Program-made: the position numbers and the translations under genes
Source of the DNA: Nocardioidaceae bacterium
GTDB lineage: Bacteria; Actinomycetota; Actinomycetes; Propionibacteriales; Nocardioidaceae
Direction of reading: 5' to 3'
Assembly (NCBI GenBank): GCA_025966335.1
Contig: JAICRS010000001.1
Coordinates: 5,613 to 69,612, forward strand
DNA length: 64,000 bases
The notes under the pieces: model-generated
Seen by the model: the letters and a program-made list of their open reading frames with translations, nothing else
The model's database searches: none
Told to the model about the DNA's origin: nothing
Part shown: positions 6,882 to 11,160 of the stretch, piece by piece
How the letters are laid out: each line of letters begins with the position of its first letter
Numbering within the stretch: the first letter of the stretch is position 1

Positions 6882-8654
6882 TCAGCGCGCGATGTCCGCG
6901 GGCTTGCTCGGGTGGTCGTCGCCACCGGTCAGCACCGACTCGTCCGAGGGCTGCACGGCCAGCGCGAAGTCGTCACCGTGCCGGGTGACACCGGTGACCA
7001 CGGCCTGCTCCACCGCGTCGCGCGCGTAGCGCCTGCGCACGATCATCGGGTCCTGGCGCAGGTCCTTGACCAGCGCCACCGCGAGGCCGATCATCACGAT
7101 CGCGAACGGCAGTGCGGCCACGATCGTGATGTTCTGCAGGCCGGACAGGGCGGAGTCCCCACCGACCAGCAGCATCACCGCGGCGACACCACCGGTGGCG
7201 CAGCCCCAGAAGATCACGGTGGGCCGGCTCGGCTCCAGTGAACCGCGCTCGGAGAGGGACCCCATCACGATCGAGGCGGCGTCGGCGCCGGAGACGAAGA
7301 AGATCGCGACCAGCACCATCACCAGGACGCTGGTGACCGTGGCGATCGGGAGCTCACCGAGCATGTTGAACAGCTGGGCCTCGACGGAACCTGCTCCGGC
7401 CAGGTCGGCGCCGTTCTGCTGGAGGTTGATCGCGGCACCTCCGAAGATCGCGAACCAGACCAGGCTGACCAGGCTCGGCACGAGCAGCACGCCGGTGACG
7501 AACTGGCGGATGGTCCGCCCCCGCGAGATCCGGGCGATGAACATGCCGACGAACGGAGTCCACGACAGCCACCAGGCCCAGTAGAAGACCGTCCACCCGG
7601 ACAGCCACTCCGCCATCGCGTCGCCGCCGGAGGCCTCGGTCCGTGCCGACATCATCGCCAGGTCCTGGAAGTAGCTGCCGACCGACGTCGGGATGAGGTC
7701 GAGGATGAACACGGTCGGGCCGGCCACGAACACGAACACGGCGAGCGACAGCGCGAGCACCATGTTGATGTTGGACAGCCACTGGATGCCCTTGGCGACG
7801 CCGGACACGGCGGAGAAGATGAACGCGATGGTGAGGACGACGATCACGCCGACGAGGATGCCGTTGCCGATCGTGCCGATGCCGGAGACGATCTCCAGCC
7901 CGCTGCCGATCTGCAGCGCACCCAGGCCCAGCGACGCCGCGGAGCCGAACAGGGTGGCGAAGATCGCCAGGATGTCGATCACCCGGCCGGCCGCGCCGCT
8001 GGCGCGCTTCTCGCCGATCAGCGGCGCGAACGCGGAGCTGATCAGCTGGGAGCGGCCCTTGCGGAACACGCCGTAGGCGATCGCGATGCCGACCACCGCG
8101 TAGATCGCCCACGGGTGAAGCGTCCAGTGGAACAGCGTGGTGGCCATCGCGTTCTGCACGGCCTGGGGGTCGCCCACCTCACCGGTGCCGGGAGGCGGAG
8201 CCATGAAGTGGGACAGCGGCTCGGTGACTCCGTAGAACATCAGGCCGATGCCCATCCCGGCGCTGAACATCATCGCGATCCACGACACGGTCCGGAACTC
8301 GGGTTCCTCGTCGTCGTTGCCGAGCGGGATGTTGCCGAACCGTCCGGCGGCCAGCCAGATCACGAAGACGACGAAGCCGGAGGCGGCGAGCACGAACAGC
8401 CAGCCCATGTTGTGCACGGTCCAGTCCAGGGCCGTGCCGGATGCGGAGCCGAGGCTCGGCGTGTTGAGAAAGCCCCAAAGCAGGAAGCCGACCGCGATGG
8501 CGGCGGTGACACCGAAGACGACCTTGTCCAGCTTCTGGGAGGTGCGGTCGTGGGTGTCGTCGACCGGACTCTCCAGCGCGGGGTGCGCCGGCTCGTTGCC
8601 TGGGTCTTGAGGGTTGTTCCGGGGGTTTTGTTCTGTGCTTACTTGGGTAGCCAC
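6882..8654 (-). CDS. BCCT family (betaine/choline/carnitine) transporter
   Basis: Motifs SWIAMMFSAGMGIGLMFYG, FHWTLHPWAIY, WTVFYWAWWLSWTPFVGMFIARISRGRTIRQF; about 12 TM segments. Confidence 0.95.
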   Translation of the reverse strand: MATQVSTEQNPRNNPQDPGNEPAHPALESPVDDTHDRTSQKLDKVVFGVTAAIAVGFLLWGFLNTPSLGSASGTALDWTVHNMGWLFVLAASGFVVFVIWLAAGRFGNIPLGNDDEEPEFRTVSWIAMMFSAGMGIGLMFYGVTEPLSHFMAPPPGTGEVGDPQAVQNAMATTLFHWTLHPWAIYAVVGIAIAYGVFRKGRSQLISSAFAPLIGEKRASGAAGRVIDILAIFATLFGSAASLGLGALQIGSGLEIVSGIGTIGNGILVGVIVVLTIAFIFSAVSGVAKGIQWLSNINMVLALSLAVFVFVAGPTVFILDLIPTSVGSYFQDLAMMSARTEASGGDAMAEWLSGWTVFYWAWWLSWTPFVGMFIARISRGRTIRQFVTGVLLVPSLVSLVWFAIFGGAAINLQQNGADLAGAGSVEAQLFNMLGELPIATVTSVLVMVLVAIFFVSGADAASIVMGSLSERGSLEPSRPTVIFWGCATGGVAAVMLLVGGDSALSGLQNITIVAALPFAIVMIGLAVALVKDLRQDPMIVRRRYARDAVEQAVVTGVTRHGDDFALAVQPSDESVLTGGDDHPSKPADIAR

Positions 8655-8786: not shown

Positions 8787-8812
8787 TACCCACGGCTGGT
8801 GTGTCCTACACC
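8787..8812 (-). promoter_or_regulatory. Possible SigF/SigB-type stress promoter for the BCCT gene
   Basis: Minus strand reads GGTGT-N16-GGGTA, about 130 nt upstream of the BCCT start. Confidence 0.4.
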
Positions 8813-9705
8813 ACAGGAACTGTGGTGATGGAAACCAGCGAGTGCGCATCCGCGCCGTTCGGCCGGGCCGACCGGCAGGTCAGCTGTTCCCAGCTCTCCG
8901 GGTCGCTGCACACCTCCACCTGCCAGCTCCGCTCACCGTCGGTGAACACGGCCATGGTGGTCGTCCCCGAACGCACGCGCGAGACCAGGGTCAGTGCGTC
9001 GGTGCGCAGCTGCCCGATCTCCTCCCGCAGGAAGATCTCGGCGGCCTGGACGGGGAACGGGTAGCCGCACCGGCCCCGCAGATGCGCCAGGTCCAGGGTG
9101 CCAGCCAGGTGGCCCTTGGCCAAGGGAACCGCGGTCTCCGGCTCGACCCGGCCGTAGTACAACCCGTCGGGGAGCACCAGCAGGTTCCCTGCGAACCGGT
9201 CACCGCCGATGTGCGAGACCTCCCAGGTCTGCTCGGGCAGATGCGCATGCAGCGCGGCGGCCACCGGCCGGCCTCGTTCGGCGCAGCACACGTCGTGCCG
9301 GCCGTGGGTACAGACCAGGAACAGCGGTGAGTCGTGCGCCGTCAGGCCGGGGGACCGGCCCCGGCCGAGCTGGTCGAGGTCGAGGTCCAACAGGGAGGCC
9401 GGGTCGTCGACCGTGCAGGTCTCCAGCCAGGGCTCGTGCACGGCGGCGAAGGCCGCGAACACCGTCAGCTCGCCCGGACTTGAACGTCCGTGCCGCCGGA
9501 TCATCAGCACCCGGACGCCGGCGCGCCGGGCGCGGGCGGCGAGCTCGGTCTTGACCTCAACAGGTAGCCGGTTGTCGCTGACGGCGTCGATCCCCCAGGG
9601 ACCGGGGTCCTCGACGAGCAGGAACGACCGGACCGTCGACGCGGTGCCGGCCTGCGACTCGCCGCGTGCCTCGCTGGCCGTCGAGCAGCGGAAGGAAGGA
9701 CTCAA
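8806..9705 (-). CDS. Sucrase/ferredoxin-like (thioredoxin-like [2Fe-2S], Apd1/Aim32-related) protein
   Basis: Motifs LVEDPGPWG, FLVCTHGRHDVCCAERG, WEVSHIGGDRFAGNLLVLPDGLYYGR, HLRGR. TTG start overlaps the JmjC gene stop (TTGA, 9702-9705). Confidence 0.88.
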   Translation of the reverse strand: MSPSFRCSTASEARGESQAGTASTVRSFLLVEDPGPWGIDAVSDNRLPVEVKTELAARARRAGVRVLMIRRHGRSSPGELTVFAAFAAVHEPWLETCTVDDPASLLDLDLDQLGRGRSPGLTAHDSPLFLVCTHGRHDVCCAERGRPVAAALHAHLPEQTWEVSHIGGDRFAGNLLVLPDGLYYGRVEPETAVPLAKGHLAGTLDLAHLRGRCGYPFPVQAAEIFLREEIGQLRTDALTLVSRVRSGTTTMAVFTDGERSWQVEVCSDPESWEQLTCRSARPNGADAHSLVSITTVPVV

Positions 9706-10829
9706 CCGACGACCCGTAGCAGCCCTTCGCGGACCAGGCGCCTGCTGAGCACGAGCCGGCTCTCGGGGTCGAGCCAGTCCGCCAGGTCCGCGGGGCGGAA
9801 CGTGGCGCTGTCACGGATCCATCGAATCGGCGCGGCCAGGTAGAGCGGGATCCGCAGCTCCCGGTCGCCGAGGAGCACGCGGAGGCGTCCGTCGTGCTCG
9901 GACACGACGCAGGCGGTGCCGGCCCGCCGCTCCAGGACGGTGCTGTCGTCCAGGGCGGTCATCGCCAACCGGTCCTCGAGGCCGCCACGCAGGACCGGGT
10001 TCCGGCTGCTGAGGAACCGGGCGGCCTGCTGGTCGGTGAGCGTCTCCGGGTCCTGCTCCATCACCTGCTCGGCCAGCGAGTGCAGGTGGGCACCCAGCTC
10101 ATCCACCATCCGTGACGGGTCGTCCAGATAGCCGGCGGGGAGGCGTCCGTCGTACCGCTCGTCCGTCAGCAGCTGGGTCGTGACCCGGCCGAGCAGATCC
10201 CGCCAGGTCAGCTGGTTGATGCCGATCGTCACGTGCAGGGACGCGGTGTCCTGCGTGCGCGCGGCGTGCGGGGTGCCGGTCGGGAGGTACATGCTGACTC
10301 CCGGCTCGAGCAGGATGTCGCGCGCGCCGCTGTCGTCGTGCACCTCCCATTGCTTGGACCCGTGGGTCTGGAAGACGAACACGTCGTGGGTGTCGCTGTG
10401 CAACGCGAACCCCTGTGAGCCGGGCGGGGTCAGGTAGGCGTTGGCCTGGCACGGGTGACCGAGGGCGAGCTCGAGGTCACGGACCAGGTCGGACAGCGGC
10501 GGCCAGTAGCGGTGCAGCCCCTGCAGGACCACGGTGGCGCCGTCGTCGAACAGGTCGAGCACCTTGCGTCCGTCCACGAGCCCGGTGAGCGGCTGGCCGG
10601 CCAGCGAGGCGGATCGGATGAACCGCGAGGTCGGCAGCACCGTCCCGTCCTTCGCGATCCGTAGGGCGGGCGCGCGCAGCGCGGTGCTGGTCAGCAGCAG
10701 GTCGACATCGCCCAACGAGAGCAGGGAGGTGAGCCGATCAGGATCCGTGTGGTGGACATGGATGTGGCGCGCCCAGACCTTCGCGACGAAGCTCTGGGCG
10801 TCACCACTGAGCAGGGCAAGCGCGTCCAA
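9702..10829 (-). CDS. JmjC/cupin-4 Fe(II)/2-oxoglutarate oxygenase, ROX (YcfD/NO66/MINA53)-like
   Basis: ANAYLTPPGSQGFALHSDTHDVFVFQTHGSKQW (HxD), YLPTGTPHAA (distal His), SLHVTIG, and a winged-helix-like C-terminal tail. Start set at TTG 10829; the ORF-track extension to 11018 is an off-frame reading of the upstream peptide repeat. Confidence 0.88.
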   Translation of the reverse strand: MDALALLSGDAQSFVAKVWARHIHVHHTDPDRLTSLLSLGDVDLLLTSTALRAPALRIAKDGTVLPTSRFIRSASLAGQPLTGLVDGRKVLDLFDDGATVVLQGLHRYWPPLSDLVRDLELALGHPCQANAYLTPPGSQGFALHSDTHDVFVFQTHGSKQWEVHDDSGARDILLEPGVSMYLPTGTPHAARTQDTASLHVTIGINQLTWRDLLGRVTTQLLTDERYDGRLPAGYLDDPSRMVDELGAHLHSLAEQVMEQDPETLTDQQAARFLSSRNPVLRGGLEDRLAMTALDDSTVLERRAGTACVVSEHDGRLRVLLGDRELRIPLYLAAPIRWIRDSATFRPADLADWLDPESRLVLSRRLVREGLLRVVG

Positions 10830-10839
10830 GACGTCGGGC

Positions 10840-11085
10840 TCAGGCGTCCGTCCCGTCGGCATCGGTCGAGTCGCCGTCGGTGCTGTCGGTGGAGTCGCCG
10901 TCGGTCGCGTCCGCGTCCGTGCCGTCCGCGTCGGTCGAATCCCCGTCGGTGCTGTCGGTGGAGTCGCCGTCGGTCGCGTCCGCGTCGGTGGCGTCCGCGT
11001 CGGAACCGGGGGCCTCAATCGGGGCGCCCTCCCCGCTGGTCTGCATGTCCTCGTCGCGCAGCGGCTCGTCGGGAGTGGTCGTCAT
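10840..11085 (-). CDS. 81-aa acidic repeat peptide, candidate precursor/substrate of the adjacent JmjC enzyme
   Basis: Strong RBS GAAGGAGGAGCA before ATG 11085. Sequence MTTTPDEPLRDEDMQTSGEGAPIEAPGS followed by DADAT-DADAT-DGDST-DST-DGDST-DADGT-DADAT-DGDST-DST-DGDST-DADGT-DA. The two 69-nt repeat copies differ only at synonymous positions. Confidence 0.85.
   Translation of the reverse strand: MTTTPDEPLRDEDMQTSGEGAPIEAPGSDADATDADATDGDSTDSTDGDSTDADGTDADATDGDSTDSTDGDSTDADGTDA
10849..10986 (-). repeat. Two tandem 69-bp copies encoding DADATDGDSTDSTDGDSTDADGT
   Basis: Copies at 10849-10917 and 10918-10986 differ at 5 nucleotides, all third-codon synonymous in the peptide frame. Confidence 0.92.
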
Positions 11086-11135
11086 TGCTCCTCCTTCGGG
11101 TGGCGGCGCGGGTACGCCGGGCCTGTCCCGCAACT

Positions 11136-11160
11136 TACCCGAGCGGTCAGGGCCTCAAAC
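11136..11160 (-). promoter_or_regulatory. SigF/SigB-type general-stress promoter motif for the peptide-JmjC-ferredoxin operon
   Basis: Minus strand reads GTTT-gaggccctgaccgctc(16 nt)-GGGTA, 50 nt upstream of the peptide ATG. This matches the GTTT-N15-17-GGGTA consensus of actinobacterial SigF/SigB-like sigma factors. Confidence 0.6.

Follow-up and report, generated by a model that had tools for sequence, protein, structure and literature searches.

The stretch analysed here (the window) comprises 64,000 nucleotides of a Nocardioidaceae bacterium genome (assembly GCA_025966335.1, contig JAICRS010000001.1, positions 5,613 to 69,612) and carries on its minus strand three co-oriented open reading frames (ORFs), which encode in order a small Asp-rich peptide, a JmjC oxygenase and a sucrase/ferredoxin-like protein. 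The first ORF (10840..11085, minus strand) encoded a precursor-like peptide of 81 amino acids consisting of a leader, a linker and a 53-amino acid core. The leader motif, L9-R-D-E-D-M14-Q-T16 (residues 9-16; 11038..11061, minus strand), was delimited by its conservation and by an interface predicted to involve strand 335-339 and helix 366-378 in the oxygenase. The second ORF (9702..10829, minus strand) encoded a 375-amino acid Fe(II)/2-oxoglutarate (2OG) oxygenase of the NO66 fold (PF08007), with a catalytic domain, a helical dimerisation region and a C-terminal β3-α3 domain, the order found in winged helices and in RiPP recognition elements (RREs; RiPP, ribosomally synthesised and post-translationally modified peptide). 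The third ORF (8806..9705, minus strand) encoded a 299-amino acid protein (PF06999) with a thioredoxin-like ferredoxin middle domain. The tight packing described in the initial annotation of this DNA was seen at both junctions, as the TTG start codon of the oxygenase gene lay 10 nucleotides past the peptide stop codon and the oxygenase stop codon overlapped the TTG start codon of the ferredoxin-like gene (TTGA, 9702-9705). The 81-amino acid peptide and its ribosome binding site were also found as annotated, the latter being the Shine-Dalgarno sequence GGAGG recognised in the sequence at 11090..11094 (minus strand).

A longer form of the oxygenase, 386 amino acids starting from an ATG at position 10862, is on record from the gene caller, and oxygenase residues are numbered according to this form throughout. 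The ATG was rejected as the start codon: it was out of frame in L031, a 95%-identical relative from a Nocardioidaceae genome and the nearest named one, and the first 9 residues of the longer form had a predicted local distance difference test (pLDDT) score of <50. Because of this frame difference and the unstructured N-terminal extension in the model, the TTG at 10829 that had been annotated initially is the better start. A Shine-Dalgarno-like word preceded 105 of 113 homologous peptide ORFs. At 44 of the 113 loci (for example L033, L039 and L047) the peptide-oxygenase junction contained no in-frame ATG, GTG or TTG between -4 and +25 nucleotides of the peptide stop codon; some of these oxygenases may use a farther or non-standard start codon.

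The oxygenase was searched for in 401 evenly sampled Actinomycetota genomes at a threshold of E 1e-20 or better, and matches were found in 74, with a patchy spread. Genome counts rest on 72 of these 74, with G048 and G088 left out; using an oxygenase profile built partly from the same sequences, 69 of the 72 scored at least 340 bits and the other three at most 210 bits. An Asp-rich ORF ended just 5′ of the oxygenase gene in 68/68 evaluable in-family genomes (in G338 the contig begins inside the gene), including L119, whose peptide was acidic but non-repetitive, and L012, whose peptide was apparently frameshifted. No Asp-rich ORF was present 5′ of the oxygenase in the three distant genomes. The ferredoxin-like gene was located 3′ of the oxygenase in 62/69 in-family genomes; it was absent from G349, G147, G290, G302, G317 and G230 and reduced to a remnant in G130, and is therefore not strictly required. 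Among loci picked by similarity, and hence rich in close kin, both neighbours were present at 80/80 GTDB loci (the best 80 of 168), and in a held-out metagenome set of 80 loci fetched later the peptide was found at all 58 loci with enough upstream DNA, 57 of them with a leader, and the ferredoxin-like gene at all 43 with enough downstream DNA. The same peptide test applied upstream of stand-alone sucrase/ferredoxin genes gave 0/43. As the layout recurs in relatives and the control was negative, the arrangement is not due to chance; the co-occurrence that the initial annotation had made a check on its proposal was thus borne out, and the peptide is very likely a dedicated partner of the oxygenase. 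Clustering of 2085 ORF calls from flanks of 1.5-4 kb, following a crude GC-based ORF filter, revealed no conserved fourth gene and in particular no protease, transporter or ATP-grasp ligase, and no ATP-grasp ligase was found among the neighbours in the window; the result applies to linked genes.

The peptide ORFs were mostly missed by gene callers. The source peptide had no match in Pfam or NCBIfam, seven of the peptides (the source peptide included) were absent, with the start codons chosen here, from a collection of 15 billion proteins, and the ESM Atlas had no entry for the peptide or the oxygenase. A leader-plus-Asp scan of the source genome, which is 78% complete, found no second precursor. 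A large orphan "cupin" family present in 74/401 sampled genomes gains a genetically encoded candidate substrate.

Alignment of the peptides revealed a leader with the consensus L/V/I-x-D-[DE]-[DE]-[MI]-x-T ahead of a variable Asp core. The pattern L/V/I-x4-M/I/L/V was present in all 139 leader calls, although the regular expression used to call leaders itself demands this pattern, and 11 loci had no call. Residues 29-81 of the source peptide consisted only of D, A, G, S and T and included 21 Asp, as annotated. This core was not built of D-x-D-x-T units alone, as first proposed; such pentamers were present but were interspersed with D-S-T trimers. A tandem repeat of 69 nucleotides (2.3 copies, 92% identity) spanned it. 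Across the family, 111 cores (one from G088) were 33-100 amino acids long and 37.5% Asp, with 13-36 Asp each at spacings alternating between 2 and 3, so that, as the initial annotation had anticipated, the leader motif was conserved while the repeat number varied. The 111 cores contained 2441 Asp compared to 17 Glu and 10 Asn, and therefore it is Asp itself, and not charge, that is kept. Core types tracked the oxygenase clades in a quick tree, with a Gly-rich ADGG/HDGG type at eight loci and a DDENLD type at three loci that lacked an adjacent ferredoxin-like gene. When 140 post-leader regions were compared, Asp was the sole residue with at least 3 copies in every one (minimum 7), and Cys occurred in none. 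F, W and Y never reached 3 copies and were absent from most cores, making aromatic cross-linking chemistry unlikely. A short encoded precursor with a conserved leader and a variable core, lying beside an enzyme, is the arrangement of a RiPP system.

PF08007 was identified in 93/93 oxygenases. H155, H199 and the 2OG-binding K170 were present in all 93 and D157 in 92, so the HxD...H triad reported initially is intact. The model of the oxygenase (pLDDT 94) matched NO66 with a Z score of 27.8 (root-mean-square deviation (rmsd) 5.6; 364 aligned residues, spanning 8-386), MINA53 with 22.8 and YcfD with 19.1 and 18.2, and a Foldseek match to the ribosomal oxygenase (ROX)-type fold had an E value of 3e-24. 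The whole-chain match to these three proteins gives the oxygenase the ROX architecture described in PMC6182338, including the helical dimerisation region and the C-terminal winged helix seen on comparison with NO66. Automatic annotation supplies the names "NO66" or "L16 Arg81 hydroxylase", which, together with the top structural matches, would favour an ordinary ribosomal oxygenase of the uL16/uL2/uL15 type with incidental neighbours. However, R63, R68, Q114, R118, Q139, N141, Y143, H159, D160, H210 and G214 were invariant in 93/93 oxygenases across three core types, and in an alignment with NO66 (L299C/C300S variant) N141, Y143, T145, H210 and T212 matched in the pocket, whereas Q114, R118, Q139, H159 and G214 were aligned to other residues. 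The patchy spread, the constant presence of the peptide, the joint loss of leader and pocket described below and the occurrence of more distant relatives in RiPP-type clusters (LanM, YcaO, TfuA, peptidases) also argue against this explanation. Despite its ROX fold, the enzyme probably does not hydroxylate ribosomal proteins, and the chance that it is an ordinary ribosomal oxygenase with incidental neighbours is very remote. The catalytic residues, including three Arg, were largely kept in 150 distant representatives. Among these, fusions of peptide to oxygenase or of oxygenase to ferredoxin-like protein were looked for and rejected, as the few long candidates look like frameshifted read-throughs. 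One relative, P0247, was an 821-amino acid protein in which two oxygenase units of the same family lay in tandem.

In the model, the C-terminal domain of the oxygenase was composed of strands 319-323, 326-330 and 335-339 followed by helices 340-351, 357-360 and 366-378. Three strands followed by three helices is the order that defines RREs in PMC12710340, which also describes RRE-like folds on PF08007 proteins and places bacterial relatives in RiPP-like contexts. PF05402 (PqqD) had no hit in the 93 oxygenases at E 0.1, and fold-search lists for the whole oxygenase were dominated by the catalytic domain. Co-folding of the oxygenase with Fe and the peptide gave a score of 0.67 compared to 0.02 for the best control; in a benchmark, the same mark was reached by 116/157 solved pairs and 2/215 mismatched pairs. 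The runs shared at least 22% of contacts, with a peptide pLDDT of at least 38. All confident contacts were made by the leader (residues 5, 8-11 and 13-21) with oxygenase residues 285-286, 333-342 and 364-379. The closest oxygenase-leader pairs (335-17, 336-16, 337-15, 338-14 and 339-13) followed an antiparallel register, such that leader residues 13-17 are predicted to extend the sheet alongside strand 335-339, as leaders do on RREs, and L9 of the leader contacted residues 339, 342, 364, 367, 368, 371 and 372. The predicted interface columns were conserved above the rest of the domain (0.71 vs 0.56). Furthermore, the four loci without a canonical leader (L119, L120, L121 and L123) were the four whose oxygenases had lost the leader-pocket residues L364/D365/S368/V371/E379. 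These loci formed one clade, in which the peptides are either leaderless or atypical and the C-terminal domain of the oxygenase is shortened; judging from the sequences this clade is a leader-independent form of the system. The C-terminal domain of the oxygenase is accordingly modelled as the part that binds the peptide leader. The original proposal of a leader-plus-core precursor with a ROX-fold oxygenase as its partner is well supported by linkage, by the leader co-fold and by the co-loss of leader and pocket; the co-fold proposed as a check docked the leader on the C-terminal domain but did not place the core.

Since Asp is the sole abundant residue in all 140 cores, the best guess for the chemistry is β-hydroxylation of Asp within the core, which, from the core composition and by analogy with known enzymes, is probable. 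Asp/Gly/Thr-rich disordered peptides can also bind cations unmodified, and the co-fold model gives leader binding alone; the peptide might then be an unmodified acidic, Ca2+/metal-binding or regulatory peptide docked on the oxygenase, whose true substrate would be another protein or a residue such as Thr. The calcium-type loop DxDxDG, as in EF-hands, occurred only 15 times, in 13 of the 140 regions, compared to 1008 occurrences of DxDxxD, Glu was excluded from the core, and the number of repeats was free to vary as in multi-core precursors, so that we regard an unmodified peptide as very unlikely. Known precedents for β-hydroxylation of Asp on precursors are SmaO, which acts at a DGDG motif (PMC12186529), and CinX and CanE, both named in PMC11575548.

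The ferredoxin-like protein matched PF06999 above the cut-off, and its model (pLDDT 96) contained a thioredoxin-like ferredoxin domain at approximately residues 125-215, which aligned with 1f37 (Z 8.7, rmsd 2.8, 95 residues), followed by a further domain (residues 214-299) with only middling matches. C132, C140, C141, H165 and D169 were invariant, and C7 and C277 were present in at least 90% of copies. The initial annotation as an Apd1/Aim32-like [2Fe-2S] protein holds for the family and the fold but not for the second His ligand: the ligand motif of Apd1/Aim32 is CX8C...HX3H (PMC8482512), whereas the protein here has C132-X8-C141...H165-X3-D169, HxGGD replacing HxGGH. In rows longer than 150 amino acids (two short stand-alone matches were dropped), Asp occupied the second-His position in 59/61 oxygenase-adjacent copies (one row from G088; of the remaining two, one had Cys and one was truncated), while 39/44 stand-alone copies had His and 5/44 had Asp. 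Because the second His is Asp, a [2Fe-2S] site of the Apd1 type should not be taken for granted. The adjacent copies formed their own branch in a quick tree (Shimodaira-Hasegawa-like approximate likelihood ratio test 94). Three of the five stand-alone Asp copies were at contig edges and grouped among the adjacent copies; the other two adjoined iron-siderophore uptake genes (L203, FecCD; L208, Peripla_BP_2). Stand-alone sucrase/ferredoxin genes at L168, L172, L176, L203 and L208 lay beside IucA/IucC, ferritin-like, FecCD or Peripla_BP_2 genes, and the family may include ferric-siderophore reductases. These neighbours are a hint that the ferredoxin-like protein has a role in the reduction or release of iron. 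A second sucrase/ferredoxin gene, unlinked to the first, was present in the source genome (L211, G000:C210), in the vicinity of genes for gyrase B and carbonic anhydrase.

The main rival is tailoring in two steps: β-hydroxy-Asp formed by the oxygenase would serve as substrate for the HxGGD ferredoxin-like protein, a second enzyme whose product might be aminomalonate, a keto acid or dehydro-Asp, so that the final peptide would be more than a plain poly-hydroxy-Asp chain. SmaO and SmaX provide a precedent, turning the Asp of a DGDG motif into aminomalonate in two Fe-dependent steps (PMC12186529), and the separate branch, the His-to-Asp exchange at a metal-ligand position and the size of the multi-domain, 299-amino acid protein, bigger than a bare electron carrier, are in keeping with it. 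The fold, however, fits thioredoxin-like [2Fe-2S] ferredoxins and not HD-domain enzymes, two HxGGD copies without a peptide lie beside iron-uptake genes, and 7/69 systems have no ferredoxin-like protein; further conversion by this protein is thus unlikely.

In siderophores, β-hydroxy-Asp serves to coordinate Fe(III). For this reason iron buffering, with the ferredoxin-like protein as the reductase, is the function we prefer, although only tentatively. As noted initially, the alignment showed no signal peptide and the 1.5-4 kb flanks no conserved protease or exporter, and the product is therefore likely to be intracellular. Alternatively, proteases and transporters encoded elsewhere in the genome could release the core from its leader and carry it out of the cell, where it would act as a peptide siderophore or signal. 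Host proteases may substitute, as curacozole shows (PMC11575548), and on a Streptomyces clavuligerus plasmid (L159:4769-6164, NZ_CP065235.1) a related cupin lies behind a 48-amino acid peptide whose leader is similar and which contains D-x-D-x-x-D motifs; genes for an S9 peptidase and for an ABC transporter adjoin them, and the locus is possibly an exported version of the system. In the core family the protease and transporter neighbours are lacking, as are a signal peptide and a fixed double-Gly site, and we give export only a slim chance.

A promoter-like site of the SigF/SigB type, GTTT-N16-GGGTA (11136..11160, minus strand), was predicted upstream of the source peptide gene, its end lying 50 nucleotides 5′ of the peptide start; it matched exactly the Mycobacterium smegmatis SigF consensus GTTT-N14-19-GGGTA given in PMC4694148. 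The strict motif was present in 4/77 relatives in a Nocardioidaceae-rich set and in 1/60 in a phylum sample. A relaxed motif, defined post hoc, was found at 26/77 of the Nocardioidaceae-rich loci (shuffles 3.0, maximum 10). General-stress control in Nocardioidaceae is on this sequence basis rather likely. It is weakened by the phylum sample, in which the relaxed motif was barely enriched (8/60; shuffles 2.0, maximum 7), by the fact that the relatives in these counts are kin and non-independent, and by the source genome, in which 29 SigF-type sites were found, fewer than in shuffles (56-68). In that genome the same motif also occurred at a sigma-70 gene, a glucan enzyme gene and MFS genes. In RNA runs at most 0.25 of words were matched, and only short contigs of mixed identity were obtained. 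No literature connecting the SigF regulon with a cupin was found, the main text of PMC4694148 mentioning neither "cupin" nor "sucrase". Near the ferredoxin-less type-C loci, a DUF2383 gene and a sigma-70 gene were found (L112:4815-5258, L113:4934-5638), which we take to be general-stress genes.

Taken as a whole, the explanation towards which we lean is as follows. The C-terminal domain of the oxygenase would grip the L-x4-M leader of the peptide, and the anchored enzyme would add a hydroxyl group at the Cβ of Asp repeatedly along the core. The modified peptide would remain in the cytoplasm and bind Fe(III), which the ferredoxin-like protein could reduce and free. Several observations weigh against this. 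In the co-fold the core was not positioned at the active site; the fold of the peptide itself was uncertain, the alignments used as input were made by the authors, and, because solved RRE-leader complexes exist, the co-fold result may partly reflect likeness to them. The co-loss of leader and pocket counts as one event, since the four loci form one clade. As for Asp as the target, every one of the 140 post-leader regions also contained Thr (minimum 1), and 139 contained Gly. Among characterised enzymes, those closest in fold are the ribosomal oxygenases, whose targets are His and Arg residues in ribosomal proteins (PMC6182338). On the side of the ferredoxin-like protein, its absence from six in-family genomes and its decay to a remnant in a seventh must be counted, as must the presence of iron genes at just 5/43 stand-alone loci (92 of 135 candidate ORFs scanned).

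The closest description of a comparable enzyme is that of MppG/MppE from Moorena (bioRxiv 10.64898/2026.10.04.756588), a 2OG hydroxylase that has the HxD...H triad and ends in an RRE domain. The leader motif L(X)4L needed by MppG, which resembles the L/V/I-x4-M/I/L/V pattern of the leaders here, is modelled as an extra strand, and hydroxylation is leader-dependent and repeated. MppG is described there as a tailoring enzyme in a lanthipeptide cluster, with a long, folded Nif11 leader and two hydroxylations on a cyclised core, whereas the system here has a sole oxygenase, a short leader and a linear core of 13-36 Asp, without a cyclase, protease or exporter. NO66/RIOX1, MINA53/RIOX2 and YcfD share the three-part architecture and the metal and 2OG residues; unlike these enzymes, which act on His or Arg (PMC6182338), the oxygenase has an attached peptide gene and differs in pocket residues. 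SmaO/SmaX, from a graspetide cluster (PMC12186529), resemble the system in Fe/2OG-dependent β-hydroxylation of Asp in a precursor (at DGDG for SmaO, predicted here) and in an adjoining second Fe protein, although only two Asp are involved, an ATP-grasp enzyme and double-Gly export are present, SmaX is an HD-domain protein and SmaO is not called a JmjC protein in the main text. An ATP-grasp ligase, as in graspetides, is missing from the neighbourhood here. CzlI of curacozole (PMC11575548) and BipG of biphenomycin (PMC12707348) are likewise JmjC enzymes acting on RiPP precursors, but are described as carrying out single-site tailoring of Phe or Orn within large clusters. The ferredoxin-like protein shares PF06999, the thioredoxin-like ferredoxin domain and CX8C with the first His with Apd1/Aim32 (PMC8482512), and differs in the second His and in the additional C-terminal domain (residues 214-299).

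Bufferins are RiPP metallophores for metal stress that are Cys-based, modified by multinuclear non-haem iron-dependent oxidases (MNIOs) and exported. The idea of a stress-linked, enzyme-modified, metal-binding peptide is common to both, but the peptides here have no Cys and no signal peptide. No paper on the peptide/oxygenase/ferredoxin trio was found in the literature searched, which left most subscription papers and supplements outside, in agreement with the initial statement that no characterised pathway was known. The single parts have precedents (MppG, CzlI, BipG and SmaO), while the trio is a candidate new RiPP class and would work like a RiPP system. If Asp hydroxylation is correct, this would be a peptide-modification system so far undescribed, possibly holding iron in stressed cells, and a RiPP class in which one hydroxylase modifies a linear run of Asp repeats many times over. 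It would offer a leader-guided tool for installing β-hydroxy-Asp and possibly a novel set of Fe-S ligands. What the winged-helix domain of ribosomal oxygenases binds also becomes a testable question; the role of this domain is called unclear in PMC6182338. The broadest version is doubtful, if conceivable: a new, widespread RiPP class defined by a NO66-fold oxygenase, with the ROX winged helix as the RRE, 13-36 hydroxylated Asp, and an intracellular iron sink unloaded by a ferredoxin whose Cys2/His/Asp-ligated cluster would be without precedent, and by extension an inherited leader-type motif reader in the winged helix of human NO66/MINA53.

More distant relatives were found in clusters of RiPP type. 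At L125:2947-5769 (G134), a distant JmjC relative was followed by a 101-amino acid ORF that resembled a long-leader precursor, had no Pfam hit and preceded a YcaO gene. A cluster in which one or two related cupins were accompanied by a carbamoyltransferase, DinB and S9/M13 peptidases recurred on Streptomyces plasmids (L161, L162 and L164). At L165 a related cupin was encoded within a YcaO/TfuA/methyltransferase/carbamoyltransferase cluster, and at L160 one adjoined a LanM gene.

Elsewhere in the window, a BCCT betaine/choline transporter was encoded on the same strand 151 nucleotides downstream of the trio (6882-8654, minus strand), which fits an osmotic-stress theme; it is not a conserved neighbour. 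A 755-amino acid, secreted-looking protein with Thr/Val/Ala repeats was encoded on the plus strand between 15643 and 17910.

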